Source: an uncultured archaeon (GTDB lineage: Archaea; Aenigmatarchaeota; Aenigmatarchaeia; CG10238-14). Taken from it: a stretch of 64,000 nucleotides of DNA. The position numbers and the translations under genes are program-made. Shown in pieces: positions 27,331-44,914 of the stretch; positions within the stretch are counted from its first letter, which is position 1; each line of letters opens with the position of its first letter. The stretch is from the NCBI GenBank assembly GCA_964373575.1, contig CAYJVB010000001.1, positions 8,262 through 72,261 of the forward strand. The letters are read 5' to 3'. The notes under the pieces were generated by a model that was not told the DNA's origin, made no database searches, and saw only the letters and a list, made by a program, of their open reading frames with translations.

Positions 27331-29885
27331 ATATCGTGATAAAAATAATTTTTCAAACACCAACATCAGATCCACCAAAAGATAAACCCGATTCACCAAA
27401 ACCAGAAGAACCAACAAAAGAAGAACCAAAATCAACAAAACCATCAATTGACTGGAGAACTATAATAATTTTTTTATCATCATTAGCAGTAGCAGGTTCA
27501 ACAGTATTTGCAATCTATTATTTCAAACTCATTACCATATTTCTAGATCCCACATTAGTGATGATCGCTTATGGACTGATTTTTCTCACTATTTTTTTTG
27601 GTATAATGGCTTTGTTCAATATTAGTTTCGCAAAGAAAATTTTAATATTGGTAATAGTAGCAGATATTATTTTTGCTTCTTTTTTCATCTTTGTAAGTAC
27701 TGCTTTTGGAAAGGAAGCTGCAGCATCTGCAATATTCTTCTTCAAAAAAGCCACAAAAGACATCGGTAAAAGTTTTTGTTACCTAAAGCCAGAAAACATT
27801 GCTACTGGCGATTATTCTGATTGTCGGGAAGATGAAGTTGAAAAGGAAGGAGAGTATGAAAGCTTAATGGTGGAGTTTGGTACAAAAGAAGGCAATAATT
27901 TAATACCAATATTAAAACCTGAAAAAGGAGAACCCTACACTTTAGATCTAACTTTGTCTAATGTCAATTCTCAGCAAGATATTGTTGTCAAATCCATTAC
28001 CGCATACGCTTCTGTAACACCCTTATCCGCTTTAAATGATCCAGAAAGATTGTCACTCACCAAAACAGAATATCTCGACGAATTTACATTGAAAGCCGGA
28101 AAACAGCAATGGTTAAGAATTAACTTTGATTCAATACCTGAATGTACTAGTTTAATATATTTCCTTACTAGAACAACAACTTTGCAAAAAGGCGGAGGAA
28201 TTTCATACTTCAGAATAATTCCAACACGTCAGGGCTTAGATGAGAAATATTTTGATACTAAATACACTCTACCATCAACAAAAACTGATGCAGGACCCGT
28301 CGATGCTTACGCCTTTGTCTATTCAACACTTCCTAAATTAATAGTAATGGACGAATTACAAGGAAATAGTTTCGATGTAATAATAAAAGTTGCAAACTTA
28401 TTCAAAAAAGGTGTTGCGGGTGTTAAATCTTTAAACTTATCAACGACTTTTGATTATATCACCATCGACAAATGTTCATCGCCAAAAATTCCTGATATAG
28501 AACTCACAAAATGTTCAGAGCAGGAGCAAGAAAACTGCGTTAAGATGAATTTAGAACAGGAAGAAAATTTAGACATCGCTGATACTCTTGAAATCGACTG
28601 CAAGGCAACAATCGATTCTTCAAAATATGATGAGAATGCAGTCACCGGTTGGATTCGTGTATCAACAGAATATGAACATTCAATAGATTCGGAAGATTTC
28701 CCAAGAAAGGCAGTATGTAATAATCCTACAATAATAGGAGGATCCTTTGGTACAGGCGGATGTCCAGAAAACCAGTGCCTGTTGGACAGACCTTCTAAAA
28801 ACAATGTTCAATATCCTTCATGTGGTAATAAAATTATAGTTGAAGGGACAGATCCAACAAAACCAGATTCATGTGACAGCCCGAAAAATATTTACAACTT
28901 CATACACGATAATTCAAAAACAGCATTGGATCCTTATGATGTAGATAATCCACAGCTCAAATCAGAAATAGAAAGTCAACTTACAACAACTAACTTTTTA
29001 GGTTTATCCGTTCGCATTAACAACAAGGTAGTTCCTAAATTAGCAGAAGTTGAAAACATAATTAACTCTAAATATTCGCATAGCGGTACAACATATGAAT
29101 TCCCAAGCGGTACATATACTTTCAAAAATAGCGGTAGCTACAATTTCAGGACAAATGTTAATAACCCAAGCGTTTTGAGTTCTCATTCTTTTGGTACAGC
29201 ATTGGATTTGAATGCAGAAACAAACTGGGGCAATCTTGCTGGTTACTCATGTCAATTTGATATTCCTCCTGAATTAGTTGAGGCGTTCGAATCTATAGGT
29301 TTCAGATGGGGAGGTAGATATTGGCCTCAGTTAGATCCAATGCATTTTGAGTATATACCAAGTTGTATCTCTACGTCGTCAAGTTCTACTGGAGATAATA
29401 CAATTTTAGCAAAATGTCCGAGCCAAGATGAAATAAAACAAAAAATTGCAAGCACAGCAAAATCTATTGGCGTACCAGTAGATATAATGTTAGCAGTATC
29501 TGAAGTTGAATCAGGCTTCTCGCATTGCGATGCATATGGTAATGTAAAAATAGGAAGAGCAGCAGGAGAAGTAGGTTTATTTCAAGTAACACCCGGAACT
29601 GCTGGTTGTTCTAAAGAATATCTTAGAGATCCAAATAACAATATCGAATGTGGTGTTAAAGTTTTCAAAGGAAAACATGATGCTTATTATCCATCAAATA
29701 GCAATGGCGATAAAACAGATCCAAATGATGTAGACTACGATCCTCTTAATTGCGGTTATTACTATCCCGATGAATGGGACAGAGCTATTAGAGGTTATAA
29801 TGGATGGGGCTGTCCTTACGAATCAAATAAAAATTATGTGAATTTAGTTAAAGATCGAGTGCCAAAATACAGCAGTTATAATTAA
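27327..29885 (+). CDS. Membrane-anchored bifunctional murein hydrolase: VanY/M15-type D-Ala-D-Ala (or L-Ala-D-Glu) peptidase domain plus a lytic transglycosylase (SLT) domain
   Basis: Pro/Lys/Glu-rich N-terminus, then about 4 TM helices. M15 motifs SHSFGTALDLNAE and DPMHFEY (~29170..29350). SLT motifs SEVESGFS ... GLFQVTPGTAG (~29440..29700). Confidence 0.6.
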   Translation: MNIVIKIIFQTPTSDPPKDKPDSPKPEEPTKEEPKSTKPSIDWRTIIIFLSSLAVAGSTVFAIYYFKLITIFLDPTLVMIAYGLIFLTIFFGIMALFNISFAKKILILVIVADIIFASFFIFVSTAFGKEAAASAIFFFKKATKDIGKSFCYLKPENIATGDYSDCREDEVEKEGEYESLMVEFGTKEGNNLIPILKPEKGEPYTLDLTLSNVNSQQDIVVKSITAYASVTPLSALNDPERLSLTKTEYLDEFTLKAGKQQWLRINFDSIPECTSLIYFLTRTTTLQKGGGISYFRIIPTRQGLDEKYFDTKYTLPSTKTDAGPVDAYAFVYSTLPKLIVMDELQGNSFDVIIKVANLFKKGVAGVKSLNLSTTFDYITIDKCSSPKIPDIELTKCSEQEQENCVKMNLEQEENLDIADTLEIDCKATIDSSKYDENAVTGWIRVSTEYEHSIDSEDFPRKAVCNNPTIIGGSFGTGGCPENQCLLDRPSKNNVQYPSCGNKIIVEGTDPTKPDSCDSPKNIYNFIHDNSKTALDPYDVDNPQLKSEIESQLTTTNFLGLSVRINNKVVPKLAEVENIINSKYSHSGTTYEFPSGTYTFKNSGSYNFRTNVNNPSVLSSHSFGTALDLNAETNWGNLAGYSCQFDIPPELVEAFESIGFRWGGRYWPQLDPMHFEYIPSCISTSSSSTGDNTILAKCPSQDEIKQKIASTAKSIGVPVDIMLAVSEVESGFSHCDAYGNVKIGRAAGEVGLFQVTPGTAGCSKEYLRDPNNNIECGVKVFKGKHDAYYPSNSNGDKTDPNDVDYDPLNCGYYYPDEWDRAIRGYNGWGCPYESNKNYVNLVKDRVPKYSSYN

Positions 29886-30790
29886 TTAGGAGAAACAATA
29901 GAGCAAATATCATTATTTGACATTATTACAAAATCATTTGAACATTTAACAACGCTAGGTAAATCTTCTGGTTTATATTTAGAGCCGGTAGCAATTTTTT
30001 CAACTAAAAACTTCACTCCTATTACACTTTCTGTTCTAGAATTTGTTTCAGAATCATATAGCCAATATTTTCCTTTTTCACTAATAACAACCTTAACATA
30101 ATCTAACCTATCTGTTAATTCTATTGCTATTCTATCATTTTCCAATTCACCTTTGATTTCATTCAAATCCTCACCAGAATTTATTTTGTTAATTACTTTT
30201 TCTGCAACATTCAAAATTTCAGCAAAATTTGTTTTCAAATGTGTTTTAATCGAAAATTCTTTAGATATCTTAAAAGGACTTTCATCATAAGTTATTGTAA
30301 CCGAACCCAGATCAACTGAAATTTCTTGCAATTCAAATACACCCACCGCATTTTTCTCATTCCAATCTAAAGACCAATATTTCGATCTACTTCTATCACT
30401 AAAAAATTTAATATAGTCGTTGAAGTAATTTTTGAAGTATGATTTTGATAAATCAGCAATATTTTGTTTAATTTCGTCTCTCGGAACGCTTTTCCAATAT
30501 GGCAATCGTTCTACAAGATTAAACTCAATTGAATTAGTTTTAGTTACCGAAATTTGCCCAATGTCTTTTACTGTCTGCAAAGTAGCCAAATCACCCGCCA
30601 TTTGTATCATTTTTCCTGTAGTTTCTAGTCTATTCCCCTCTTGCAGAATTTTTTCTTGAAACGACCTTTTTTCAATAATAATTTTCGTTCCAAAGAAGAA
30701 CAAAGCTCCTACCACAGCAAGTACTAACATAATAGCTATCCCAACTACAAAAAACCCCTTTTTATTGCTCGCCATTTCGTATCTAATCAT
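29882..30790 (-). CDS. Pilin-like protein (class III N-terminus); last gene of the minor-pilin operon
   Basis: MIRYEMASNKKG|FFVVGIAIMLVLAVVGALFFFG. Confidence 0.45.
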   Translation of the reverse strand: MIRYEMASNKKGFFVVGIAIMLVLAVVGALFFFGTKIIIEKRSFQEKILQEGNRLETTGKMIQMAGDLATLQTVKDIGQISVTKTNSIEFNLVERLPYWKSVPRDEIKQNIADLSKSYFKNYFNDYIKFFSDRSRSKYWSLDWNEKNAVGVFELQEISVDLGSVTITYDESPFKISKEFSIKTHLKTNFAEILNVAEKVINKINSGEDLNEIKGELENDRIAIELTDRLDYVKVVISEKGKYWLYDSETNSRTESVIGVKFLVEKIATGSKYKPEDLPSVVKCSNDFVIMSNNDICSIVSPN

Positions 30791-31259
30791 AAGTCGAAAA
30801 TTCCCCCGGAATTACGAAATTTCTACCATCATAAATTTGTGGAAACACAAAAGTTGTTCTAAAGTTATATTTTCCTGTTACAAAATTTCGTTTGCTATTG
30901 CAGGAAACGTCATGACCACCAGAAATAACATGATCTCTGTCATTTTTTATACCTCCAAGCAAAAATTTATAGCAGGTCGAAGAAGCTAATTTATTCATAG
31001 TTTCTTCTAATTCTGTTGAAGTTTGCACCTCATCCTTCACTAAAGCAACAGCCAAATTGTCGTTATTTAAATAATATCTTGAATTTACAATTGCAAGCGG
31101 TATTAAACTGTTCTGACTTAAAGTTATTGTCTGCTCTCTGGCAACTGTTATGGTATATGTAAAAAGGTAAACAAATATGACAAGTGAAATAGCTGCAAAA
31201 ACTAGAAAAATGTTTATTGCTAATAGAGTTGCAATTCCCTTAGAATCCATCCGGAACAT
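30783..31259 (-). CDS. Pilin-like protein (class III N-terminus)
   Basis: MFRMDSKG|IATLLAINIFLVFAAISLVIFVYLF. It overlaps its neighbours by 8 and 20 nt, which indicates operon coupling. Confidence 0.45.
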   Translation of the reverse strand: MFRMDSKGIATLLAINIFLVFAAISLVIFVYLFTYTITVAREQTITLSQNSLIPLAIVNSRYYLNNDNLAVALVKDEVQTSTELEETMNKLASSTCYKFLLGGIKNDRDHVISGGHDVSCNSKRNFVTGKYNFRTTFVFPQIYDGRNFVIPGEFSTYD

Positions 31260-32076
31260 TTAAAATCACTCTCGTACCATCGTTTTCTATTTTAGCAGGG
31301 AAACAGCCTATTGGCCATCTTTCAGTTGATATTTCATCAATTCTTTTGTTAACTTCTTGTATGTTAAAACCACAGCTTATAACTTTACAAAGCTCTGTTC
31401 CATCTGAGGATAAGATGCATATTTTATAGTTATTAGTAGAGGATATTTTTTCAATTTTGATACCATCACTCGTTTGCATCAATTCATAAATGCTTATATC
31501 ATTTGAATATTTATTTTTAGAACATGCAATAGCTAAATTATTAGCGATATTTGAAAGTGGTGTTTTTACCAAATTAATCTTCATTTCAGCAGGATATCTT
31601 TCATTGTTTCCATCTGCAATAACTACGGGTATGCTATAAGTCCTCAAAAACTTTTCACCAGGAATTTGTTTGCATTTTTTACCCTGTTCAAAAAAATTTT
31701 TAATTGAGACAGCAGGAAATCCGATATCAAAAGACTCTTCTGTCTTCAAATTTTTTACTTGGAGTGAATAATCATATTCTATGTAGCTGCAACAATCTAA
31801 CTCTTTTTTTGAATCTCTAATTTCAATCAACTTTTCTTTTGAAATAACCGCTTTCTCTGGCTGGTTATTAGTATCTTTGACAACGAGATCAGAAGATGTT
31901 GCTATAACATTCAATATATTAATCGCCTTTCCGACTTCTTCATAAACCTCCTTTTCATTTTTGAATTTTACAATGTCACCAGTTAGAAAACCAAAAATTA
32001 GAATAACAACGGATAAAGTAACTAAAGCGCCAATTAACTCTCCAAAACCTATTGCTATAGATAATCCTTTATTCAA
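31240..32076 (-). CDS. Pilin-like protein (class III N-terminus)
   Basis: MNKG|LSIAIGFGELIGALVTLSVVILIFGFL. The Glu in GFGELIG resembles the conserved Glu of type IV pilins. Confidence 0.5.
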   Translation of the reverse strand: MNKGLSIAIGFGELIGALVTLSVVILIFGFLTGDIVKFKNEKEVYEEVGKAINILNVIATSSDLVVKDTNNQPEKAVISKEKLIEIRDSKKELDCCSYIEYDYSLQVKNLKTEESFDIGFPAVSIKNFFEQGKKCKQIPGEKFLRTYSIPVVIADGNNERYPAEMKINLVKTPLSNIANNLAIACSKNKYSNDISIYELMQTSDGIKIEKISSTNNYKICILSSDGTELCKVISCGFNIQEVNKRIDEISTERWPIGCFPAKIENDGTRVILNVPDGF

Positions 32077-32527
32077 TAATTTCCACCTTCAATTTGTTAA
32101 TAGAATATTCTTTTCTGATTTTTACATCAAAAAAATTCTCAATTTTATCGGGTGCAGTGAAATCAACTCCAGAGCTCGATGAAGTTTTCTTGAAAAGGTT
32201 TTCCAGTTCTTCTTGATTAAATCCTAATGGCAATGATGTAGCTCCCTGTTCTGCATCTATAAAAACCATTCTTCTACCAAATAACGCCGTATAAAAAAAT
32301 TTTGTTGCTGGTTTTAAATAAATTATTTCAACAGAACCCGGAACACCAGCGGATACAGTAATAAGCTCGCTTAAACCATCACTTACAGCCTCTGAACTTC
32401 CTTTGACAAAAAAGTAAGTGAATACGGCAACACCTTCGAGTATTTTACCGGCCATCATTAAGGTAATAATAAAAATACCGATCGTAATTAAGATAAAATT
32501 TAACGCCTCTTTACCCATTCCAAACAC
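32069..32527 (-). CDS. Possible pilin-like/membrane protein in the pilin operon
   Basis: MFGMGKE|ALNFILITIGIFIITLMMAG hydrophobic N-terminus. Coupled to its neighbours. Confidence 0.35.
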   Translation of the reverse strand: MFGMGKEALNFILITIGIFIITLMMAGKILEGVAVFTYFFVKGSSEAVSDGLSELITVSAGVPGSVEIIYLKPATKFFYTALFGRRMVFIDAEQGATSLPLGFNQEELENLFKKTSSSSGVDFTAPDKIENFFDVKIRKEYSINKLKVEIIE

Positions 32528-33200
32528 ATCCTATTTGTTTTTCACAAGCTTCCTCGCCTTTCACTATAATATTTCCACTTGCATCTACTATATCGTGGAA
32601 TGAGTAGCAGGGTATAACTGTGCCTAAACATTTATCAATATCAGGACATATAGCTCGTCTACATGATGTATCTCTTGTTTTAACTAAACTACATCCTTTT
32701 TGTCCTCCGCATTTATCTAAAGGCGAACTGCTTGATACGCCAAACAATGTACAAATAGCTGCATCACCAGTACATCTCGGTATAAAAACTTCTTTCACTG
32801 TTATTACAACATCATACTCTTTAGCTTTAGAAGCGTCAAGTTTACCACCCTCTTTAGAGAAGTCAAAGATCACAGAATTCATTCCATATGGACACTGTGT
32901 ATTTATCTTTCGAATAAAATCTTCATTCTTCAACCGGTATTCTAAGTTCATGTCACTTCCTTTGAATTCAGCATACGTTACGCAATCCAGCAGCTCAATT
33001 TTAGAAATATCGTCAATATCAGAATCTCCTATTTGACAAGCCCTATCTATAATTCCACTTATTTTGTTTTTAAAAAGATAATTGCACGCATCATTTTTTA
33101 CTTTCTGTCCTATTACACCAGAAATCGCTACAACAACACCTATAATCAAAACAGTTCCTATAATTACCACTATGAACGAATCAACGCTGCCTTTCATCAA
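32511..33200 (-). CDS. Pilin-like protein with a Cys-rich globular domain
   Basis: MMKG|SVDSFIVVIIGTVLIIGVVVAISGVIG. Twelve Cys in the C-terminal domain. Confidence 0.45.
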   Translation of the reverse strand: MMKGSVDSFIVVIIGTVLIIGVVVAISGVIGQKVKNDACNYLFKNKISGIIDRACQIGDSDIDDISKIELLDCVTYAEFKGSDMNLEYRLKNEDFIRKINTQCPYGMNSVIFDFSKEGGKLDASKAKEYDVVITVKEVFIPRCTGDAAICTLFGVSSSSPLDKCGGQKGCSLVKTRDTSCRRAICPDIDKCLGTVIPCYSFHDIVDASGNIIVKGEEACEKQIGCVWNG

Positions 33201-33239
33201 TTAAGAATAGATTTTTGTGGTTATTTATTTTATCTTGAG

Positions 33240-33542
33240 TTAAACATCTTCGCAATCTATAATTGCACCACCTGAAGAACCAGGTTTGCATACTGCCTCG
33301 TTATCACAAAAATCTCCTCTACCACCAAAATTACCACTACATTTTCCATCTGTATCAGAAAAATCTTTTGGAAAATCTCCTGTTTGTAAAGTACACCACT
33401 CAGCTAACAACGCTTTACATCCATTGAAAGCAACAGAATCTCTAAATGGTCCCAATCCAAGATATAATAAACTTACAATAACACCAAGAACTATTAACGC
33501 TAAAATAATCTTAACAATCGTTTCTTGAGCCATTCCTTTCAT
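33240..33542 (-). CDS. Small pilin (100 aa). It is the best candidate for the major pilin or a pseudopilin subunit.
   Basis: MKG|MAQETIVKIILALIVLGVIVSLLYLGLG is a class III signal with Glu at +4 and a hydrophobic helix, followed by a short Cys-containing head. Confidence 0.5.
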   Translation of the reverse strand: MKGMAQETIVKIILALIVLGVIVSLLYLGLGPFRDSVAFNGCKALLAEWCTLQTGDFPKDFSDTDGKCSGNFGGRGDFCDNEAVCKPGSSGGAIIDCEDV

Positions 33543-34557: not shown

Positions 34558-35166
34558 TCAATACCGTCTATATTTTTCTTTAAGTTTCGTAAATTTATCA
34601 TCTTTTTTCTTTAGTCTCCAAACATAAATAACAACAGCACTTACAATCCCAACAATTGAAAATATAATGAGAGTTTTCATGTTACCGGGTTTTATAATTG
34701 TTGTGGTAGTCGTTATAGATACACATTCTTTCGGGCAAATAAGTTCAGATTCTCCCCTATCAGATTCACAAATATTATTCTCATTGCAGATGTAACCCGA
34801 AAGCTCAACCTCTTTTATAACCGTATCATTATGCAAAAATCTGATAGTTCTATATTCATCATTCCACGGTATTCTATGATACGCTCGCGAATAATTCACT
34901 TCACCAACTTCAAACTTATAGAAAACGACAGGAATCGTCAACGCCACTAAAGTGTTATTTCCTTCTCCTCTAATAAATAACTGATACTCCTCCGTTCCAG
35001 GTGTATAAAATACTGTTCCATTAGAATATTTTATATCAACTATCTCAATAGAATCATCTATGTATATAACATAATTCAAAATCAAAATCGGTTCTGCATA
35101 TGATATTTGTAACAAAAACAACAAACTAAATAGCAGACTAACAAAAACAATGATAAATTTAGTCAC
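34558..35166 (-). CDS. Secreted protein with a C-terminal TM anchor (202 aa); function unknown
   Basis: Sec signal MTKFIIVFVSLLFSLLFLLQISYA. C-terminal TTTTIIKPGNMKTLIIFSIVGIVSAVVIYVWRLKKKDDK. Confidence 0.45.
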   Translation of the reverse strand: MTKFIIVFVSLLFSLLFLLQISYAEPILILNYVIYIDDSIEIVDIKYSNGTVFYTPGTEEYQLFIRGEGNNTLVALTIPVVFYKFEVGEVNYSRAYHRIPWNDEYRTIRFLHNDTVIKEVELSGYICNENNICESDRGESELICPKECVSITTTTTIIKPGNMKTLIIFSIVGIVSAVVIYVWRLKKKDDKFTKLKEKYRRY

Positions 35167-37642
35167 AATAACCAGCCTCTCTAATTCTTACCAATATAGA
35201 ATTATAACCTTCCGAGCCAAATTTAACCGGATTTCCCACCATAATATAATTACCTTGACTATCTCTATACATATTTCCCCCACCACCCATTATATCTGTA
35301 TCATATGGTGGAGAGTTACCACCTATTTTCTTTCCACATGTTCCAAGATCGCAAGCAGTGTTATCAACACTGCAATCTGTATCACATTTATCATCTGGAC
35401 CTATTCCATTATCTAATGGATATGGGTTCCCACAACTAGAAAAAGGTTGAGATTCTTTCAGAATACCAAAATTCTTAAAACGAACATTTTGTCCTTCCCA
35501 AGTAAATCTATCATATTCATCGCATAACTTAAATTTATGTCCAATTTCATGCGCAGGACAAGTTCTATCAAGACCTTCAGGTAAACCACCGAAGCACATA
35601 GCAAAAGGTAACACCATATCTGCAAACCCATTTACTATAGGATCATCACTAAGTGCAAATACTAAATCATGATCATTTAAACCCATATTTTCAACACACT
35701 GTAAAACTTCTTGTTCGCAAATGTCCCATGTAGAATCATAATCACTTAAATCGGGGCATTGACAATTCTGATCTAAAATCCTTATGTCAATTCCATTTCT
35801 GCATTCTCTGAAAGGAGATTCTTCCAAAAATGTATTCATCCTATCTTGAGCTCTTTTTCTATATGCATTCATGTCGTCATAATTCACAGCAACAACATAA
35901 ATTCTATAACGATTAGCTAATTTTATTATATTTCCAGTATATTCAGCTTTATTAGAGTTACCCGCCTTATCGCCAGCAATTGTTACAAGTTTGTATTCCC
36001 CCACTCGGTTCAATATAAAGGAGCCAGTACAACTTACAAGGAAACTTACTCTATTATGACCTATTGATGCAGCTAAATCCAAACTATCACAATCTAGATC
36101 TTGACTATAATACCGAGCTCCATTTTGTTCTATGTACATTTCTATAGAATCTTTATCAAGGTTCACATCTTCATCATAGATTAGAGCTTTAGCAATAATA
36201 GGCGAGTTTGTGTAACCAAAAGTTGGTATAGTATACGCATCTATGACAGGCAAGTTATCGTCCGGTAATATTGTAACAGAAGTTTCAATATTATTTTCCT
36301 TTGTAGTTTCAAATCCAGACTGACTTCTGCAGGAAATGTAGTATTTTTTCTCTTCCACCATTCCATTGTTTAGGCCAAAACATAGTATATAATCCGAAAA
36401 TGTTGTTGTATTAGGGTATAAATTATCTTGAGTGACGAGATTGAAATTATCATAATTGGGGCAATCCAAAGTCATCTCATCGAAATTTAGATCTCTATCC
36501 GATATCCTACAAATTGAATTTTCTGAAGGAATAACCCGAATCATAGGATTTAATTGTTTTGTGCTGGAAGGACTATCAATAGATGCAAAACATTTAACAT
36601 CGGGTTTATTATCATATGTAATCTCTTCTTCACAAACTGGACAACTTTTTGTTGTCAAGACATTATAAGTACAAGATTTGTCAGAAGCAAAACACCCATA
36701 AAGCCTTCTTTCTGCTGTATAATCATTGGCACAAAACCACCCATTACTAGATGTACATGATTCAGGACACGAAATTATTTCTCTGTCTTTACACCCAGGA
36801 TATTCAGATAGGTCATAATCATAATAAGCTGGATTATCTTGCCAACTTATTTTATCATCGTCATTCAAATCACAATCATATGGAAAACAGTTATCTGCTC
36901 CTGAGTCATAAGTATCGTCAAATATGTTATAATCTAACTTATCCCTTATACCATCCACATTTATATCAGGACAAGCACCTATAGGACAATTTGAGAATTC
37001 TGAAGCCAATTTTCCTAAGTTATCTTCAACCCATTGACGGTCTTCTTCATCTACAATTCCATTATTATCAAAATCACAATCAGTTACCCATGCAGCAGCA
37101 CAATACGACTCCCCTAAACTATATCTAAGATCATCAACATCTTTCTGATCTATTAACCCATCTCTATTTCCGTCAGGACAATCAAATTCCAATTTTGGTT
37201 CAATAGTTAGACTTATAACATTACTCTCAAAATCAAGCTTCTCTTCTCTTACGTTGTATCCTCCAACAAGTCTAAGCTGATAATCACCACTTTCTTTTAT
37301 ACAGTCTGAAATTCTGAATTCTCCCTTTATGGCTCTTTCTCCTTTGACAATCACGAAATCTCCAATTTTATAAATTTTACAAAATTTCCATTCTTCATTA
37401 GAACTTGCCTTTCTATACTGAACTCCAAGCTGATAATCTTTTTCTGCCAAAAAAGCTTCAATTCTGTCAGTGAAATCAAATTCAAAAGTAAAAAAATCTT
37501 TCAGACTACCTTTTGTTCTTAACCCAAGAGTTGGTTCTGCAGCTTGCAGTGTATCTAATAGAATAACTGTTACAAGAATCGTAGCTAACAACACAACACA
37601 AAATTTTGTTTTATTCACGTAATCCTCCTCTAAATGTTTCAA
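35159..37642 (-). CDS. Secreted zinc metalloprotease (HExxH) with multiple Ca2+-binding Dx[DN]xDG (thrombospondin-type-3/dockerin-like) repeats
   Basis: Signal peptide. Repeats DCPDGNRDGLIDQKDVDD, DCDFDNNGIVDEED and CPDINVDGIRDKLD. C-terminal HEIGHKFKLCDEYD zincin motif. Confidence 0.55.
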   Translation of the reverse strand: MKHLEEDYVNKTKFCVVLLATILVTVILLDTLQAAEPTLGLRTKGSLKDFFTFEFDFTDRIEAFLAEKDYQLGVQYRKASSNEEWKFCKIYKIGDFVIVKGERAIKGEFRISDCIKESGDYQLRLVGGYNVREEKLDFESNVISLTIEPKLEFDCPDGNRDGLIDQKDVDDLRYSLGESYCAAAWVTDCDFDNNGIVDEEDRQWVEDNLGKLASEFSNCPIGACPDINVDGIRDKLDYNIFDDTYDSGADNCFPYDCDLNDDDKISWQDNPAYYDYDLSEYPGCKDREIISCPESCTSSNGWFCANDYTAERRLYGCFASDKSCTYNVLTTKSCPVCEEEITYDNKPDVKCFASIDSPSSTKQLNPMIRVIPSENSICRISDRDLNFDEMTLDCPNYDNFNLVTQDNLYPNTTTFSDYILCFGLNNGMVEEKKYYISCRSQSGFETTKENNIETSVTILPDDNLPVIDAYTIPTFGYTNSPIIAKALIYDEDVNLDKDSIEMYIEQNGARYYSQDLDCDSLDLAASIGHNRVSFLVSCTGSFILNRVGEYKLVTIAGDKAGNSNKAEYTGNIIKLANRYRIYVVAVNYDDMNAYRKRAQDRMNTFLEESPFRECRNGIDIRILDQNCQCPDLSDYDSTWDICEQEVLQCVENMGLNDHDLVFALSDDPIVNGFADMVLPFAMCFGGLPEGLDRTCPAHEIGHKFKLCDEYDRFTWEGQNVRFKNFGILKESQPFSSCGNPYPLDNGIGPDDKCDTDCSVDNTACDLGTCGKKIGGNSPPYDTDIMGGGGNMYRDSQGNYIMVGNPVKFGSEGYNSILVRIREAGYCD

Positions 37643-38663
37643 CTAGTTCTGAACCAAGTTTAGTAACTACAAAAGTAAATGGAAATGTGACAAGATCATC
37701 AGTTTTCTTAGGTAATAGAGCAGTTGTTATTTTATATTTGCTATCGCAAAATGTCATCTCCATATCACTATCGCTCGAACAAAATTCTTTTTGTTCCGGA
37801 ACTGGTTTATTTCCACATTTAAAATTGAGTTTAATCAAATAATCTTCTGAATTCGTGCAACCGTCGGGATAGACATCTTTTATTAAAACGCCATCATTCA
37901 GCCCTAAAGGATAAAATTCATTTAATTTTAAATTCATAGTTTTTTCAACATTCTGTTCAATATTTCTATCAGAATAAAAATCAAAAACTATTAATGATTC
38001 ATCAACGTTAGTTACAAAAGTTATAGGAATTGACTCTTCAATGAATTTTTGTTTTATTGCATCATAATAAAATGGGTTTGAATCACCAGATATTAATATA
38101 GTCTCCGACCCTCTTATTTTTACACCTTCTACACCACATTGAGACGGATCACTTCCATACTCATCAGTAACAATATTGTCAGTTACTACTATCGTATTTG
38201 GCTGAAGTAATCCTTTAAACATATTAGATAGAGCCAGATAATCAAGTGCGCCAGCAGTAGACGTTTCAATACATTGATAATTTTCTCCTAAATTGGATTT
38301 TTCAATCCATGAATCCTTATTGTCTAATTGCACGATTATAGGAAACTGAAATCCACAAATCCTATCACTACCAATAAAATTAATTATTTCAGGATTGCAA
38401 TAATTGCTACATCTAAAATCAGAAGCGTCATCTTTTATATTTTTTACTTCATCACTATCACACCCATAATAACATCTGGCCATAACACACTGAGCTGCTA
38501 GTTCTGCAACACTCGTTCCCTGAAAGCATTTAAATGGGTCTTCTTTAACACAGGGATTATTTCCTAAAATTGATAAAAAAGCAACTAAAGCAAGAATTAC
38601 AAAAACAGCAACTAGAAAATACATAACTAACTTGCTTGTACCTATATCAGAATTTCCTTTCAT
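37611..38663 (-). CDS. Membrane-anchored/secreted Cys-rich protein (350 aa)
   Basis: MKGNSDIGTSKLVMYFLVAVFVILALVAFLSILG N-terminal anchor and about 16 Cys. Its ATG overlaps the stop of the upstream micro-ORF (ATGA). Confidence 0.4.
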   Translation of the reverse strand: MKGNSDIGTSKLVMYFLVAVFVILALVAFLSILGNNPCVKEDPFKCFQGTSVAELAAQCVMARCYYGCDSDEVKNIKDDASDFRCSNYCNPEIINFIGSDRICGFQFPIIVQLDNKDSWIEKSNLGENYQCIETSTAGALDYLALSNMFKGLLQPNTIVVTDNIVTDEYGSDPSQCGVEGVKIRGSETILISGDSNPFYYDAIKQKFIEESIPITFVTNVDESLIVFDFYSDRNIEQNVEKTMNLKLNEFYPLGLNDGVLIKDVYPDGCTNSEDYLIKLNFKCGNKPVPEQKEFCSSDSDMEMTFCDSKYKITTALLPKKTDDLVTFPFTFVVTKLGSELVETFRGGLRE

Positions 38664-38788
38664 TTTATCACTTTACTAAACCAGTCAATAATATTATTGA
38701 ATAAACCATATGAACTTCCAATAAAAATTAGTAATATAGTTAAAATAATCAGTGCAATTATCAATCCAACAATAAATTTAGTCTCCAT
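38660..38788 (-). CDS. Micro-ORF of 42 aa, single TM (METKFIVGLIIALIILTILLIFIGSSYGLFNNIIDWFSKVIK); not in the ORF track
   Basis: Clean ORF. Its TGA overlaps the ATG of the 37611..38663 gene. Confidence 0.3.
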   Translation of the reverse strand: METKFIVGLIIALIILTILLIFIGSSYGLFNNIIDWFSKVIK

Positions 38789-38995
38789 TCAACCACATTT
38801 ACAATCCATGAAAACTCCTATTACGCCTAAAGTGCCTTGCATAGATTCGCATAGCTTACAACCAACTTCATCTACAAATTTTTTTCCACCTTCCGTTGCA
38901 TTGTTCAAAAAAATCCATAATAAAACCAATCCAAGCATAGCTACTATTAACGATATTACTATTACCAATGTATGTCCACTTATACCTTTTTTCAT
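38789..38995 (-). CDS. Small pilin-like protein (68 aa) with four Cys
   Basis: MKKG|ISGHTLVIVISLIVAMLGLVLLWIF, then CKLCESMQG...CKCG. The ATG overlaps the TGA of the upstream micro-ORF (TGATGA). Confidence 0.45.
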   Translation of the reverse strand: MKKGISGHTLVIVISLIVAMLGLVLLWIFLNNATEGGKKFVDEVGCKLCESMQGTLGVIGVFMDCKCG

Positions 38996-39150
38996 CACGA
39001 CACCTTCAACAAATTTCTGAAAACATCTCTTAGCGATTGGACAAACGATTCCAATTGTTCTCTAAATATAACTATGATTGAAACTAGAAAAAGAGTTACT
39101 ACTATGAGCATTATCACAGTTGTTATCACCTCTCTGGATACTCCTTTCAT
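38995..39150 (-). CDS. Micro-ORF of 51 aa with a class III-like N-terminus (MKG|VSREVITTVIMLIVVTLFLVSIIVIFREQLESFVQSLRDVFRNLLKVS); not in the ORF track
   Basis: Its ATG directly follows the TAG of the TadC-like gene (TAGATG), so it is translationally coupled. Confidence 0.4.
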   Translation of the reverse strand: MKGVSREVITTVIMLIVVTLFLVSIIVIFREQLESFVQSLRDVFRNLLKVS

Positions 39151-41196
39151 CTAGACACCAATATCTGAAATCAAGCGTCCTAGAACAAAGAATATAATCA
39201 ATACAGTAGCTGTAAATATCAATGCACCTCTCATCAAGCTTGTAGCTATAGAATATTGAATTTCTATATTGTCATCTCCCTTTTCAATTCTAACCGAAAA
39301 AACGCTAAGAGAAATCAGAACTTCTATCATATAAATACCAACAACTATCACAAAAATTTCTAGCGGCATTATGTTTTCAATCGATAAAGGTAAATTTTTG
39401 ACATCTTCTATAGGAAAAGATTTGAATAAATCGCTAATATAAATCAAAATTCTTACTAATATTCCACCTAGTCCAACAACAGCTCCAGCAGCCAATGGCA
39501 CTAGAACTATTGACATAATCTTCATCGATGAGATAACATCCTCCAAAATATCTTTCAAATTCTGGCTTACAGTTTGAATTCCTTTCAAATAATCCGAAAC
39601 AGCTATCAACGTCGTCGCAGCAATACCCATTCCTTTTGTCGTCGACTCAACAGTTATCCTCATCGTATTCTTAATCAAAGCCGACGGGTATTCATTTATC
39701 AACCCAACATCTTTATTGAACACAGCTTCTTTAAGAGTCAGTCCCATTTGCGATATCCTGTACAACAATTTCTCGAAAAACACATGAATCTTCTCATTCT
39801 TCACCTTTTCAGTAACTTTCTTTAATGAGTTCTCCAATGGCTGTCCCGATCTTAAAACAGTTCCAAGAATGAACATAGCATCCCCAAAATCTCTCTCAAC
39901 ACCCTCAATTTCTTCTTTGATTTTTTTATTTTTGTTGCTTGAAAAGAAAGTGTAAAACACAATAGCAATTATTAAACCCCAAAAAATACCTAACGAAGCA
40001 AACAACTTATCGTCAAGAGTTATACCTTCACTGGGATTAAATAAAGTCACCAATCCAAAACTTGATACCAATAAGAAAAACATTGCAGCAATAGGAACTA
40101 ACGGAATCTCTATCTTATTTTTACCAATAAATATAGCAGCATTCCCCGGTTTTGCAGCTTGAGGATGATTATATATATCGGGAACATAAAATCCATACGG
40201 CCTCTTCTCCAACTGATTTTTCATTAACCACAAAACAAGAAACGGCAGTATCAAATCATATAAACCAACAAGCACATATATCTTTGCCGTCTTCCCCAGA
40301 ACCAGCGTGACAATAGGAAACAAAATCAATGTTATAACAGGCAATAAAATCCCTAGCGCATGTATAGTTGTTATTGGCGCCTTCAACTCTCTAGAATATT
40401 CCTTCATCCTCTCCAAATTCGATTCAAGTATGAGTTTTACAGCATTATCAATAGTTTTATCTCTATTAACAGGTTCTAACAAAGAAGTTGTTAACATATC
40501 TAATGATCTAGTAAACTCTTCATTCTGAACCTTCCACTTATCTCCAAAATCTTGCAACGCCTCCTCAACACTAGAATATCTCCTAGTATGAACATCCCAC
40601 AGAATCTTTCTCAAATCCTTCCCTACAGCCCCAGGTAAATTAACAGCAGCGAACGTAACAGCATTTTCTAAATTAGGCGTATTCCTCAAGCCAATTGCAA
40701 TATACAAAACCGCAAGAACAAGTTCAGATGAAGCCCCCACTCTTACCTTTTTAGAATAGCTATTAGGATACGTCAGCAAGTAATATGAAAATGCAAAACC
40801 AACCATTGATTCCAGCAACAAATACGGTAGTATTTTCCCAAACGTTATTCCAGCTGATAAAATAAAAAACAACCCCGCCGATAGAAACATTGCAATTACT
40901 GTAGCTATCAATCCAAAAACAAAAGTTGAATAAACAGTATAAGGTTCTACATTAAGATTAGAAAAATTCAGTTTAGCATACAAATCTTTTTCTTTCTCAT
41001 CACTTATTTTTATCCTAATTAAATTTCCAGAAAATGCACACAATTTCTCATACCAATTTCTTTTCTCAGATTCTGTTTTGATGTATTCTAAAAAATCCTG
41101 TGACAGTCTTTTCCCAACAACATTGACAAAATCATCGTATAACTTGTCTAATTCTCTCTTCATCCTAACCACGTATTTGCCTTCTAAGCCAGTCAT
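39151..41196 (-). CDS. TadC/FlaJ/GspF-like membrane platform protein (paralog 2), immediately downstream of the ATPase
   Basis: 681 aa, the same length and domain order as the 24300..26345 protein. It overlaps the ATPase gene by 32 nt. Confidence 0.6.
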   Translation of the reverse strand: MTGLEGKYVVRMKRELDKLYDDFVNVVGKRLSQDFLEYIKTESEKRNWYEKLCAFSGNLIRIKISDEKEKDLYAKLNFSNLNVEPYTVYSTFVFGLIATVIAMFLSAGLFFILSAGITFGKILPYLLLESMVGFAFSYYLLTYPNSYSKKVRVGASSELVLAVLYIAIGLRNTPNLENAVTFAAVNLPGAVGKDLRKILWDVHTRRYSSVEEALQDFGDKWKVQNEEFTRSLDMLTTSLLEPVNRDKTIDNAVKLILESNLERMKEYSRELKAPITTIHALGILLPVITLILFPIVTLVLGKTAKIYVLVGLYDLILPFLVLWLMKNQLEKRPYGFYVPDIYNHPQAAKPGNAAIFIGKNKIEIPLVPIAAMFFLLVSSFGLVTLFNPSEGITLDDKLFASLGIFWGLIIAIVFYTFFSSNKNKKIKEEIEGVERDFGDAMFILGTVLRSGQPLENSLKKVTEKVKNEKIHVFFEKLLYRISQMGLTLKEAVFNKDVGLINEYPSALIKNTMRITVESTTKGMGIAATTLIAVSDYLKGIQTVSQNLKDILEDVISSMKIMSIVLVPLAAGAVVGLGGILVRILIYISDLFKSFPIEDVKNLPLSIENIMPLEIFVIVVGIYMIEVLISLSVFSVRIEKGDDNIEIQYSIATSLMRGALIFTATVLIIFFVLGRLISDIGV

Positions 41197-44100
41197 CCCA
41201 TCTATTGAAAATTTCTTCTGGATTCAAAACGCCATAATCCCTTTTTACATCATCCGAAATGAGGTGAAACATTTCGTTGCTCAATGAAACCCACTCAGCT
41301 TCTAATATATCCTTTCTATCAAGCCTGTTAGCATAATCCACCATCGTCTGCTTCATCTTTGCCCTCAACTCAATATTATCCCAAACAGCCTCCCAGTTGC
41401 CATGCCAATCTCTAACCCTTTTCGCAATCTCATTAACAACAAGCGATTCTCCATTAAGCAATGTTCCAGTTGGTTTCAACTCATCATCTTTAGCCGAATA
41501 TTCCATCAAAGTAACAAAACCCTTTTCATCCATAGGGTCACTCTTCCAATGTTTCCTCACTTCAGCAACTTCAAGTATTCTTCTATATCTATGCAGGCCA
41601 TCCCCAGATTTTATCATTCCTGAAATAACAATTACGTCAATTGCTTTGAAACTTGTCGCTGTCACACCCAAATCATTTACAACTCTATCAAAAACACCGT
41701 ATGGCGACTCTCCATGTATAGTTCCAGCGACAACATTGGATAACGCACCAATCCTCATCGCCTCAAACAAAGCTCTAGCTTCAGTATTATGCAACAATAT
41801 ACCACCAAACCCACCAACAAAATTTTCACTAGGATTAACTGATAAATCATAAACAAATTCACTCTTTTCTAGCTCTATTTCTTTGATTTCGACTATTTCG
41901 TCAAGGAAGAAATCTCCCCCTGCAAAATTCTTTAGTCTTCCTGACGTTTGACATTCTTTATCATTCACTACTCTCTCCAAATATTTCTTGCTGCATTTTT
42001 CAAAACGGAACAAATGTCTATATTTTCTAGGATATCTAGTAAGATGTTTTTTCAGTTCAATTTTATCGAAATATACCATATTAACCTTTGTGTGTTCCCA
42101 TCCCGCTTCAATCATTACAGGATCATATTTAGTAAAACCAACCTCTTTTAAAAATATTTTGACCATTTTCCTATCTTTAAATTCAACTGTCCATAAAGGT
42201 TTTCTGCTTTTTTTATTTCTTATTTCTTTAATTCTAGCAACTATTCCAAAAACAAGAAGTAGATATAACAGATCCTCAGCAAGCAACTTCGAAGTTGTGT
42301 AATATCTTACTGCATTTCCAGACCTTATAGATTTTGTGAAATTTCCGTCACCGCTATAAAGCCCACGTAAAAATGCCGCTATTTTCTTTCGGTTTAATCC
42401 AAAAATCAGTGGTGGAATTCTTTTATCGCCTGAAGTTCTGCCACATTCCAACTTTGATAAAAATGTTGATAACGGAGATGAGAATAAATGAACTTGAGTT
42501 GATTTACCCCAACCAGTGATCGATCTGAAAGACGGCTTGATATTGAAGGTTTTATTCGAAATATCTACAATTTCTTGAATTATTTCTGGATTAGAATTTG
42601 TTATTACAACACGGCCACCCCTACCTTCAGTCAAATCATAATAACCTTCTGCTACATAATAACCCAAAAATTTACAAAAATCTTCATTAACAGAAATCAC
42701 AGCAGGTATTGGGTTGCCGGTGCCACGGGTTATCATTAATTCTTCAGGTTCATAAAATGTATTTGTAGCCTTCATCAATTGAACAAAATTGTGAACCGGT
42801 ATGTTTGTTTTCTGGGCTCTGAAATAATTATAAATATCACCAGAAGTAACCTTACAGATTTCAGTAGCTTTTTTCCACCCAACTTTTTGAATACTTCTTC
42901 TTACAGCATCTTCAAAATTTTTTAATCTAAATTCCGGTAATATATCAATTAAATTTAGATCATCTATATCATTGAATCCACAAAGCATCTTAGAGGGTAT
43001 AACTACCTGATTACCAGGTTTAAGTTTATCACATTCTATCGCTGCAATTCTAAAATCTTTAGTAGCAGTAAATAAACTATGGTCAGGAGTAACTGTGACC
43101 TTCCTACCAGTTTTTGTTGTTATTTCAATAAGTTTTTTCCTTGGTGGGTGTTTAACAAAGTCTGCTAAGGGCCTTATATTCATTTTCAGATTGAAATCGA
43201 GAGTAGGCACATTGTAATTTTTGATCCCCCTGTTTTCCAAATCTTTTATCTTAACTCTTTTTGTAACATTATTTTCTATCACTAAAACTTCTTGATCCCC
43301 TCTAATAGAACTTCTCACCTCACCAACAATCAAACAAGAATCACCCAATCTCAACGCAGTTCTTAATGCATCATCTGCCGGCAACTCGGATTCAATTCTT
43401 GTAATAACAGATCGCGACTTCATCCTTTCGATATTATATCCTATGTCTCTTAGTTGTGTTATAGGTAATTCAAGCGTGTCCTCTAGGCTAATTACACGAA
43501 ACTTTTTCATCATTTCCAACATAGTCGCTCCTAGCAGTGATGATTTACCACTCGATCTTCCACCTGCAAACAAAATAGTCCTCGAACCGTCAACAAGAAA
43601 ACTCATCAATCCAGCAAACATCGAATTCATATATTTCGTGTTCATAAACAATGGATAAGTCCATGGTCTATCTCTATGCCTTCTCAATGCATATGCCAAT
43701 CCTTCTGGACTTAATGTCCTTGTAATAGCACCAACCCTAGCCCTCCCGCCAGGTACAAACAACTCAGTATCAAGAACAGGATTTGCCTCATCTAACGGTC
43801 TTCCAGAAAGCAGTCTGAACCTCGTAGCCCAACTCTCAGCATCCTCCCTTGTCGGTATTAAATTAGTCTCGCACTCTTCATAATCGTCATGCAATACATA
43901 AACCGGCGTGATCCCTATAGGCGAATTTATGTAAATATCTTGCAACTTGGTATCACTCAGCAACAATTCCAATATCCCAAATCCTGCAGTATATCTAACA
44001 AGTATATTCACCATCTCTTCCAGTTCCTTCGGTGTATATTGATTTTTTGCAGCCATCTGATTAATCATATCCTTTCCAATATTCAGGAAAATTTCCCTCG

Positions 44101-44914
44101 CCCTTTCAGGTTGTGTGAACTCCTTCTCTCCAGGCTTATGTTCAGTCAGCTGTGACCTTGCCGAATTAATAATCGCATACTTGTCATCCGTAAGCTTGAA
44201 CTCAGGTGCAATAAGATGATAAAAATATCTTACCTTATTTGGAACCCTGTAAATCTCAACCTGCAAATTTCCTTGTACATCATATCTCTCAACAAGCCTC
44301 CCACCCTTCGGCGGAAGAAAAGCATACCTCGTCAACATGAAAATAGGTCTTATAAGAGGATTGAATATCTGCCTATAGACATCTCTATTTCCGATAACAT
44401 ATCCATACAAGTTATCCTTGACAAGGCTGATCAGTTTTGTCTTCTCCAACTCTTTGAGTACCGGCTCTAGAACATTCCTCACAAACATCAGATAGTAAGC
44501 CCCATCTTTTGTTGTTTTGACCTTTGAATAATATTGCCTCATCATCCTCCTTATCTTAACATACGCCCCAATGGGATCTCTTTTGACCATCTGTTCCAAA
44601 ACAACCTTGAATTGATTGAGCGGCGCACCTAATATCCTTGCCGCAGCCTGACCTCCAATTTTTGAAAAATCAATTCCTTGTGTAGCGAGTCTATCATAAA
44701 CATCAGCCACTTCTAACAACAGCTTTGTCTGATCATAGTCATATTCATACTCCCTTGTTTCAGCAAGAATAATCCTCTCAACCCTTTTGAGTTGAAGTAT
44801 CTTATCAATAACACTGCCCATTATAATGTCAGAATCTTCTAGATTAGTGCCGTACACACTGTTCATTACATTAACCTTCAGAATACCGTCAATCATTTCA
44901 TGCTCTAATGCCAA
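41165..44914 (-). CDS. Type IV pilus/secretion ATPase (GspE/FlaI/TadA/VirB11 superfamily) containing a large intein
   Basis: Walker A FAGGRSSGKSSLLGAT. Asp/His-box region RLGDSCLIVGEVRS is interrupted and resumes TEARALFEAMRIGALSNVVAGTIHGESP, matching the host motif IIVGEVRG.EA...TGH.G..TTIHA. A long N-terminal domain is typical of archaeal FlaI-like ATPases. Confidence 0.75.
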   Translation of the reverse strand: MALEHEMIDGILKVNVMNSVYGTNLEDSDIIMGSVIDKILQLKRVERIILAETREYEYDYDQTKLLLEVADVYDRLATQGIDFSKIGGQAAARILGAPLNQFKVVLEQMVKRDPIGAYVKIRRMMRQYYSKVKTTKDGAYYLMFVRNVLEPVLKELEKTKLISLVKDNLYGYVIGNRDVYRQIFNPLIRPIFMLTRYAFLPPKGGRLVERYDVQGNLQVEIYRVPNKVRYFYHLIAPEFKLTDDKYAIINSARSQLTEHKPGEKEFTQPERAREIFLNIGKDMINQMAAKNQYTPKELEEMVNILVRYTAGFGILELLLSDTKLQDIYINSPIGITPVYVLHDDYEECETNLIPTREDAESWATRFRLLSGRPLDEANPVLDTELFVPGGRARVGAITRTLSPEGLAYALRRHRDRPWTYPLFMNTKYMNSMFAGLMSFLVDGSRTILFAGGRSSGKSSLLGATMLEMMKKFRVISLEDTLELPITQLRDIGYNIERMKSRSVITRIESELPADDALRTALRLGDSCLIVGEVRSSIRGDQEVLVIENNVTKRVKIKDLENRGIKNYNVPTLDFNLKMNIRPLADFVKHPPRKKLIEITTKTGRKVTVTPDHSLFTATKDFRIAAIECDKLKPGNQVVIPSKMLCGFNDIDDLNLIDILPEFRLKNFEDAVRRSIQKVGWKKATEICKVTSGDIYNYFRAQKTNIPVHNFVQLMKATNTFYEPEELMITRGTGNPIPAVISVNEDFCKFLGYYVAEGYYDLTEGRGGRVVITNSNPEIIQEIVDISNKTFNIKPSFRSITGWGKSTQVHLFSSPLSTFLSKLECGRTSGDKRIPPLIFGLNRKKIAAFLRGLYSGDGNFTKSIRSGNAVRYYTTSKLLAEDLLYLLLVFGIVARIKEIRNKKSRKPLWTVEFKDRKMVKIFLKEVGFTKYDPVMIEAGWEHTKVNMVYFDKIELKKHLTRYPRKYRHLFRFEKCSKKYLERVVNDKECQTSGRLKNFAGGDFFLDEIVEIKEIELEKSEFVYDLSVNPSENFVGGFGGILLHNTEARALFEAMRIGALSNVVAGTIHGESPYGVFDRVVNDLGVTATSFKAIDVIVISGMIKSGDGLHRYRRILEVAEVRKHWKSDPMDEKGFVTLMEYSAKDDELKPTGTLLNGESLVVNEIAKRVRDWHGNWEAVWDNIELRAKMKQTMVDYANRLDRKDILEAEWVSLSNEMFHLISDDVKRDYGVLNPEEIFNRWDDWLRRQIRG
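41786..43309 (-). other. Intein (~508 aa; protein residues ~536-1043) with a LAGLIDADG homing-endonuclease domain, inserted in the Asp-box/His-box region of the ATPase
   Basis: The insert starts with Ser after GEVRS and ends ...GILLHN, followed by extein Thr+1. It has Hint-like blocks and LAGLIDADG motifs (FLGYYVAEGY, LRGLYSGDGNF). Removing it restores the contiguous conserved motif VGEVRS-TEARAL. Confidence 0.6.

Follow-up and report, generated by a model that had tools for sequence, protein, structure and literature searches.

Inteins in archaeal ATPases of the VirB11/COG0630 type are an already catalogued class. The main text of the survey by Novikova et al. (2016) lists 21 inteins for archaeal VirB11/COG0630 ATPases and another 5 for CpaF/COG4962 ATPases (Table 3), and reports that inteins cluster in conserved ATPase motifs (PMC4760082). 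The KlbA inteins (Methanocaldococcus jannaschii MJ0781, Pyrococcus; PDB 2jmz/2jnq), which likewise reside in an archaeal host protein of the GspE/VirB11/FlaI superfamily, were assigned to class 2, with Ala1 and Cys+1 (PMC2807308). Here we describe a related case in a stretch of DNA of 64 kb (the window, meaning the whole stretch analysed), in which a gene for an assembly ATPase of the type II secretion system/type IV pilus (T2SS/T4P) family is interrupted by an in-frame intein with a LAGLIDADG endonuclease region. We interpret the gene product as the ATPase that drives assembly in a type IV pilus-like system of a DPANN archaeon and the insert as a full-length class 1 homing intein that invaded it, a reading to which we attach a probability of roughly 0.88.

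The host ATPase and the insertion site

The gene forms a single open reading frame (ORF) that is intact over 3750 nt, with 0 stops and 0 frameshifts in the ORF list, and its product equals the database protein P0001. The N-terminus that follows from the TTG start, ALEHEMIDGILKVN, agrees with the way in which homologues begin, for example P0003 (MVFEHELIDNILKVN). The gene and its motifs are arranged as follows, where a slash marks a splice junction:

41165..44914, minus strand: precursor gene, T2SS/T4P-family assembly ATPase with in-frame intein; single ORF of 1249 amino acids (aa), TTG start
43310..44914, minus strand: N-extein, aa 1-535; family-specific N-terminal extension, N-domain, Walker A, Asp box and Walker B; aligns with Archaeoglobus GspE (AfGspE, PDB 2oap), CpaF and FlaI; Pfam T2SSE
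43541..43564, minus strand: Walker A GGRSSGKS, aa 451-458; intein site a of other alleles (GK/C..HN/T, P0027)
43469..43492, minus strand: Asp box ISLEDTLE, aa 475-482; intein site b of other alleles (ED/S..AHN/TLE), empty in the window gene
43310..43333, minus strand: Walker B LIVGEVRS, aa 528-535; catalytic Glu and conserved Arg; the final residue is position -1 of the intein
41786..43309, minus strand: intein, 508 aa, precursor aa 536-1043; class 1 by sequence (Ser1...His-Asn, then Thr+1)
41165..41785, minus strand: C-extein, aa 1044-1249, plus stop codon; begins with Thr+1 and holds the His box
41711..41728, minus strand: His box AGTIHG

Coordinates and junction residues are exactly those of the original prediction, made from the sequence of the window, which comprised an ORF of 1249 aa at 41165..44914 with an insert of ~508 residues at 41786..43309. 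The initial Ser, the final HN, the Thr+1 and the two LAGLIDADG motifs that it listed were all located in the translation, and after GEVRS (aa 531-535 of the precursor) the ATPase resumes as it stated, the C-extein starting with TEARALFEAM...GTIHGESP (letters after the intein: TEARALFEAMRIGALSNVVAGTIHGESP).

The exteins place the protein in the secretion-ATPase superfamily (GspE/PilB/FlaI/TadA), as the RecA-like C-terminal domain holds GGRSSGKS, SLEDTLE, LIVGEVR and AGTIHG and the PF00437 model scores above its cutoff. The protein is not an archaellum motor, given that it reaches 91 bits with the FlaI model (NCBIfam NF058587) versus a cutoff of 550 bits. With 741 aa, the extein falls into a clade of ~745-aa ATPases, the named members of which are mostly labelled Aenigmatarchaeota, and judged by these named homologues the host is probably a DPANN (Aenigmatarchaeota-like) archaeon. 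Compared to FlaI and AfGspE, the ATPases of the clade are ~200 aa longer at the N-terminus and ~110 aa longer at the C-terminus. Within their His box (window 41711..41764, minus strand; P0002-P0120) the first His, found as TGH in GspE, CpaF and FlaI, has given way to RIGAL/RVGAL, and the second His (GTIH) is retained. The TGH that had been read into the motif is therefore not there; the window family has RIGAL instead.

For CpaF, functional roles have been described for the Asp-box residue E312, the Walker B residues E357 and R359, and the His-box residue H382 (PMC11300603). Their counterparts in the aligned window protein are SLE(478)D, GE(532)V, R(534) and GTIH, respectively (CpaF reads GE357-V-R359-G). 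The intein is located directly behind Walker B, one residue past the conserved Arg (GE-V-R-S/), 56 residues past the Asp box and ~25 residues ahead of the His-box histidine; we refer to this position as site c. The predicted location in the conserved motif region thus holds in the sense that the site lies between the Asp box and the His box, but not in the sense that an Asp-box/His-box motif is itself split. The start of the intein was put at S536 and not at S535, because all relatives with an uninterrupted site (98/98) read GEVRS-x-EA. A start at Ser535 was ruled out, as the mature protein would be one residue short of all 98.

Joining aa 1-535 to aa 1044-1249 yields a protein of 741 aa, where ~740 aa had been foretold, and the two halves indeed rebuild one ATPase. 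The joined extein matches AfGspE with an E-value of 1e-26 and no gap at the junction (iivgevrGREAqtlfqam versus livgevrSTEAralfeam), the alignments to Caulobacter CpaF and Sulfolobus FlaI are also gap-free over the junction, and with the intein taken out the match to Pfam T2SSE improves from 27 to 45 bits. The spliced sequence was searched against 5.8 billion proteins, which gave thousands of homologues, and the best 120 were examined. Intein-free alleles, for which a search had been proposed, make up 109 of these 120; they are ~745 aa long and the named ones mostly bear the label Candidatus Aenigmatarchaeota. The closest (P0002, 81% identical) derives from a syntenic locus (L001), with the same 32-nt overlap between the ATPase gene and the gene for a T2SSF-type membrane protein and the same small divergent genes upstream. 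The empty site of this locus (...GTTGGAGAAGTGAGAAGT/ATCGAGGCCCGTGCC...) matches the joined exteins of the window at 73 of 90 DNA positions, and at the protein level the junction reads GEVRS/IEA in L001 and GEVRS/TEA in the window.

The residue equivalent to +1 in the 98 uninterrupted relatives is mostly Val (39) or Lys (27), followed by Thr (13), Met (5), Leu (4), Ile (3), Ser (3) and others (4), whereas all complete site-c alleles that were read have Thr or Ser there, which fits the need for a nucleophile at +1. The 16 of 98 uninterrupted relatives (among P0002-P0120) that do carry Thr or Ser at this position could represent footprints of intein loss, or alleles that were pre-adapted to invasion.

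The same data bear on the question whether the arrangement is an artefact of assembly or annotation, that is, two ATPase half-genes around a homing endonuclease gene of its own, or a contig of chimeric origin. The window does stem from a metagenome-type assembly, and a free-standing LAGLIDADG ORF is present elsewhere in it (4373..5278). Yet a single frame runs throughout without stop or frameshift, Hint blocks occur on both sides of the endonuclease, the halves join gap-free onto intein-free homologues, and the arrangement recurs, junction residues included, on more than 20 independent contigs of different projects. An artefact is therefore extremely improbable.

Anatomy of the intein and predicted splicing

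The intein starts with SIRGDQEVLV and ends with GGILLHN. Its parts are the following:

42950..43309, minus strand: N-terminal splicing (Hint) subdomain, intein residues 1-120; blocks A and B; TIGR01445 intein_Nterm
43280..43309, minus strand: block A, SIRGDQEVLV
43070..43108, minus strand: block B, GRKVTVTPDHSLF; T74 and H77 invariant, TxxH reads VTVTPDH
41930..42949, minus strand: central region, intein residues 121-460; LAGLIDADG core together with helical parts that resemble DNA-binding elements; matches to LAGLIDADG_3, PI-PkoII and I-DmoI
42638..42670, minus strand: LAGLIDADG motif 1, FLGYYVAEGYY; acidic residue E221
42338..42379, minus strand: LAGLIDADG motif 2, AAFLRGLYSGDGNF; includes LRGLYSGDGNF, G320-D321-G322 invariant
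41786..41929, minus strand: C-terminal splicing subdomain, intein residues 461-508; blocks F and G; TIGR01443 intein_Cterm
within the C-terminal splicing subdomain, minus strand: block F, EFVYDLSVNPSENFVGG; invariant D488
within the C-terminal splicing subdomain, minus strand: block G, GGILLHN; invariant H507 and N508

Several independent models recognize these parts, at levels well outside what chance would produce. The Pfam family Intein_splicing (PF14890) matches with an E-value of 1e-21 over precursor aa 546-1043, LAGLIDADG_3 (PF14528) matches in two stretches (E 6e-25), and the NCBIfam models intein_Nterm and intein_Cterm both exceed their cutoffs. The best sequence match in the PDB is PI-PkoII (E 1e-22), in three stretches that correspond to the N-terminal splicing part, the endonuclease and the C-terminal splicing part; further matches include the TFIIB mini-inteins of M. 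jannaschii and Mvu, the VMA inteins and PI-PfuI. An AlphaFold2 model of the intein, built from nine allelic inteins, has a mean predicted local distance difference test score (pLDDT) of 84.6 and a predicted template modelling score (pTM) of 0.86. In Foldseek comparisons the whole model resembles PI-PkoII (E 4e-28, template modelling (TM) scores 0.67/0.64) and, over the full length, TliVMA, PI-PfuI and PI-SceI, whereas the nuclease core fits I-DmoI (TMt ~0.7). The claim that a LAGLIDADG intein splits a FlaI/GspE/TadA-like ATPase is thus backed in concert by Pfam, the PDB sequence matches and the AlphaFold model.

Conservation among alleles points the same way. In an alignment of nine site-c inteins that are 46-61% identical, S1, T74, H77, G320-D321-G322, D488, H507 and N508 are all invariant, so that the Hint-block conservation looked for is present in blocks A, B, F and G, with the key residues unchanged in all nine. 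Both the splicing and the endonuclease residues appear to be under purifying selection. The sequence has what characterizes a class 1 intein (Ser1, the TxxH of block B, the Asp of block F, the C-terminal HN and a Thr at +1), the Hint fold is supported by PF14890 and by the resemblance of the model to PI-PkoII, TliVMA, PI-PfuI and PI-SceI, and the acidic residues E221 and D321 within an I-DmoI/PI-SceI-like core are those of a monomeric LAGLIDADG endonuclease with two motifs. We regard it as highly probable that the element is an intact intein of the class 1 LAGLIDADG type, and as likely, from the residues conserved, that it splices efficiently in vivo.

On this basis the following course of events can be proposed. 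Translation would yield a precursor of 1249 aa in which, with the intein beside Walker B, the nucleotide site of the RecA-like core could not form until the intein leaves, so that on structural grounds the precursor should be inactive as an ATPase. Splicing would begin with an N-O acyl shift at Ser536, aided by Thr609 and His612 of block B, and continue with transesterification by Thr1044 and cyclisation of Asn1043, aided by His1042; a final O-N shift would then deliver the 741-aa ATPase (...LIVGEVRS-TEARALFEAM...). It is a reasonable inference that pilus assembly in this organism depends on protein splicing. For annotation purposes the mature 741-aa ATPase should be recorded, and not a 'hypothetical' protein of 1249 aa; the database copy P0001 carries no name.

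Allelic inteins, further sites and probable mobility

Inteins were found in 11 of the 120 best homologues, at three sites. Site a, in Walker A (GK/C...AHN/T), is occupied in one case, by a mini-intein of 160 aa (P0027), site b, in the Asp box (ED/SVTGD...AHN/TLE), in seven, and site c in three, one of them the window gene. When the intein alone served as query, site-c junctions came to light in more than 20 additional proteins. Many of these are cut off by contig ends, and their labels include Aenigmatarchaeota, Micrarchaeota, Nanoarchaeota and 'archaeon GW2011_AR18'. This word-index search did not list P0001, P0071 and P0073, though the query or close relatives are inside these proteins. An exhaustive search of 1.84 billion representatives gave 5161 matches at E <= 0.001. 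Among the best of these were ATPases of ~1775 aa in which sites b and c are both occupied (P0166, P0167, P0169). Site-c inteins also occur in a FlaI-like clade (P0170, P0171), the members of which reach 341-359 bits with the FlaI model (window protein: 91), and yet another position, site e, just ahead of the His box (QGM[AS]/S...HN/SGH), holds a set of inteins that are 30-33% identical.

The site-c inteins P0071, P0073, P0121-P0137 and P0166-P0171 share with the window the junction GE[VI]R[SG]/S[IL][RP]G...[IL]LHN/[TS]EA, are 494-528 aa long and show 46-62% identity; they constitute the true allelic family. They differ in their surroundings, with C-exteins that are 53-78% identical to that of the window and, for P0170 and P0171, membership of a much more FlaI-like clade, and several are accompanied by a second intein at site b or e. 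Two or more inteins per polypeptide were observed in P0166, P0167, P0169 and P0171-P0177, in the combinations b+c, c+e, b+e and a+e; such ATPases measure up to 2011 aa around a core of ~550-750 aa, and in P0171 sites c and e are ~11 residues apart. A relative with 34% identity interrupts the P-loop (GGVGK/S...FLHN/ST) of a ParA/MinD-type ATPase (P0138, Pfam CbiA), hence the lineage of the window intein is not confined to secretion ATPases.

The distribution of these inteins is informative with respect to mobility. The closest inteins, P0121 and P0122 (62% and 59% identical), sit in C-exteins that are 53% and 58% identical to that of the window, whereas the inteins in the closer C-exteins of P0071 (74%) and P0130 (78%) are less similar to that of the window (54% and 47%, respectively). 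Intein identity thus does not track extein identity, which suggests horizontal movement. According to the homing scenario, the LAGLIDADG endonuclease of the excised intein would recognize alleles that lack the insert and cleave them in the sequence that encodes GEVRS/xEA, after which the intein would be copied in by repair; this would explain the patchy distribution of the intein among orthologues and paralogues. The patchy distribution, the empty sites in close orthologues and the mismatch between intein and extein identities indirectly favour endonuclease activity and homing.

An extension of this scenario is that the intein serves as a conditional switch, with splicing responding to temperature, pH, ions or host contact and thereby setting motor activity post-translationally. 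The site adjoins the Walker B Glu and the Arg that contact the gamma-phosphate, so a precursor that still holds the intein is expected to be inactive, none of the nine compared alleles departs from the splicing residues, and Novikova et al. proposed sensor roles for inteins clustered in ATPase motifs (PMC4760082). On the other hand, 109 of the 120 best homologues do without any intein, the closest one included, the endonuclease motifs are conserved as well as the splicing motifs, as expected of a selfish homing element, and with Ser and Thr as nucleophiles, and no Cys, the known redox-controlled mechanisms would not apply. Such a switch is conceivable but unsupported, and we consider it improbable.

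A number of points weigh against the interpretation as an invaded pilus ATPase with an active homing intein. The ATPase may power a pilus, another surface filament or secretion; its score of just 91 bits with the FlaI model sets it apart from archaellum motors. Splicing and DNA cleavage are both predicted from conserved residues. The final 10 residues of the structural model, with the catalytic His-Asn among them, have a pLDDT below 50. The incongruence between inteins and exteins consists of pairwise identities of nine sequences, which falls short of a tested phylogeny. Finally, the G+C content at third codon positions (GC3) of the intein (0.24) is below that of the exteins (0.35-0.39) yet within the range of the other window genes (0.18-0.37), so base composition, which we had considered as a sign of foreign origin and dropped, provides no independent indication of recent transfer.

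Two of these points, the prediction of splicing from sequence and the poorly modelled C-terminal residues, would also be compatible with a decayed intein that no longer splices, in which case the ATPase gene would in effect be a pseudogene or the precursor would work in some other way; a second T2SSF paralogue in the window (see below) moreover hints at more ATPase genes elsewhere in the genome. Decay is hard to reconcile, however, with an ORF that is intact over 3750 nt, with the presence of S1, TxxH, the block F Asp, HN and Thr+1 and the invariance of catalytic positions across alleles that are only 46-61% identical, with exteins that retain Walker A, the Asp box, Walker B and the His-box His, and with a downstream platform gene that is still translationally coupled through an overlap equal to that in the intein-free locus L001. 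We therefore consider a decayed intein highly unlikely and retain the reading as an intact and apparently working homing intein in an assembly ATPase.

Locus context and comparison with described inteins

Two genes for platform proteins were identified in the window:

39151..41196, minus strand: T2SSF (FlaJ/TadC-like) polytopic platform protein, 681 aa; downstream of the ATPase gene with a 32-nt overlap; Pfam T2SSF
24300..26345, minus strand: second T2SSF platform paralogue, 681 aa; 29% identical to the ATPase-linked one; no adjoining ATPase gene

The gene of the intein-bearing ATPase was the only T2SSE gene found in the 64-kb window. Given the two T2SSF paralogues, its earlier description as the system's sole ATPase holds no further than the window: both platforms may share this motor, or a further ATPase gene lies beyond the window. 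Downstream on the same strand, at 29882..33542 and 37611..38998 (minus), around eight ORFs with N-termini like those of archaeal prepilins were recognized by eye, with a short charged Lys/Gly leader followed by a hydrophobic helix of ~20 residues (e.g. MKGMAQETIVKIILALIVLGVIV and MMKKGISGHTLVIVISLIVAMLGLV). They gave no Pfam match and are probably the pilins and minor pilins of the locus. The same locus encodes (35159..37642, minus) a Cys-rich secreted protein of 827 aa without a Pfam match, in which inspection by eye showed several repeats of the form DxDxDGxIDxxD, like those of dockerins and EF hands, and near the C-terminus the zinc-protease motif HEIGH (HExxH).

DPANN archaea are thought to use type IV pilus-like structures for host contact, and proteins of the Laminin_G_3 type are abundant in this group and have been linked to type IV pilus loci in a study of ARMAN archaea (PMC5498576). 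The window encodes a protein of 1010 aa with such a Laminin_G_3 (concanavalin-like lectin) domain (16427..19459, minus). Large proteins with bacterial cell-wall-degrading domains are encoded at 11295..13784 (minus), 27327..29885 (plus) and 22865..24319 (minus); their domains are an SLT lytic transglycosylase plus M14 and M23 peptidases, an M15 D-Ala-D-Ala carboxypeptidase plus SLT, and a glycoside hydrolase of family 3. For an archaeon, which makes no murein itself, this is a remarkable set, and it may reflect contacts with bacteria or predation on them. The free-standing ORF at 4373..5278 (minus, 301 aa) matches LAGLIDADG_3 (E 6e-7) and has no surrounding Hint domain; it was rejected as a relative of the window intein, showing no significant similarity to its endonuclease (E 0.03), and may encode a homing endonuclease that stands alone or once belonged to an intron. 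The Rfam tRNA model matches in full at 2304..2410 (plus; 107 nt, 61 bits), probably an intron-containing archaeal tRNA, and ARAGORN detected no tRNA in the whole window. An archaeal signal recognition particle RNA and housekeeping enzymes are encoded in the window as well.

With respect to sequence and fold, the best matches of the window intein are PI-PkoII (Thermococcus kodakarensis Pol intein-2, PDB 2cw7), PI-PfuI and TliVMA/PhoVMA. All have a Hint domain, a LAGLIDADG endonuclease with two motifs and accessory DNA-binding parts, and the motif residues align (KLLGYYVSEGY with KFLGYYVAEGY of the window, and AFLEGYFIGDGD with AFLRGLYSGDGN). The hosts differ, being DNA polymerase, ribonucleotide reductase and V-ATPase on the one hand and a secretion ATPase on the other, and with a structure-based identity of just 14-19% the window intein represents a distinct lineage.

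The KlbA inteins resemble that of the window in that both sit in the C-terminal ATPase domain beside a nucleotide-site motif and in that their Hint domains are weakly similar (E 4e-4). The KlbA site, however, lies inside the His box (MNTGHDG/ALAYDEP...AVSN/(C)SGTLHH), ~17 residues downstream of site c; these flanks were read from PDB 2jmz alignments using guessed exteins, the M. jannaschii KlbA query being 100% identical to 2jmz. Furthermore, the M. jannaschii KlbA element is a mini-intein of 168 aa without endonuclease, whereas that of the window has 508 aa and a LAGLIDADG endonuclease. The junction GEVRS/S...HN/TEA, with Ser1 and Thr+1, in place of TGHDG/.../C with Ala1 and Cys+1, rules out that the two are the same allele; the window intein is a distinct allele and, by its sequence, an ordinary class 1 intein.

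The inteins counted by Novikova et al. share with the present one the host class, an archaeal T2SS/T4P P-loop ATPase, and the tendency to gather in conserved ATPase motifs, and the main text of that survey gives counts without insertion sites (PMC4760082). Our literature search found no description of inteins in DPANN pilus ATPases, which is weak evidence. DPANN genomes were few in 2015. The window element is real and of a fairly ordinary mobile-element type in a known type of host gene, and it leaves the current understanding of inteins and pili unchanged. As the alleles of this one essential motor carry no intein, one or two, they form a natural test set for homing, for conditional splicing and for the interference between neighbouring inteins (described in PMC10643990), and a Ser1/Thr+1 intein that makes no use of cysteine, from a probably mesophilic organism, could have some value as a protein-engineering tool. 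The insertion site behind Walker B may be little documented or undocumented, and it occurs in a protein family that hosts many inteins in metagenomic archaea. That this site (GEVRS/T) has not yet been catalogued is a tentative proposal with the odds somewhat against it; if it is so, inteins would have a hot spot, so far given too little attention, in the T4P/FlaI-type ATPases of DPANN archaea and their relatives. A bolder proposal is that conditional splicing here might gate pilus assembly, and through it host attachment, in a symbiont. Together with Walker A, the Asp box, the position before the His box and the KlbA site, a new site behind Walker B would bring the occupied positions in these ATPases to at least five, with alleles that carry two or more inteins.

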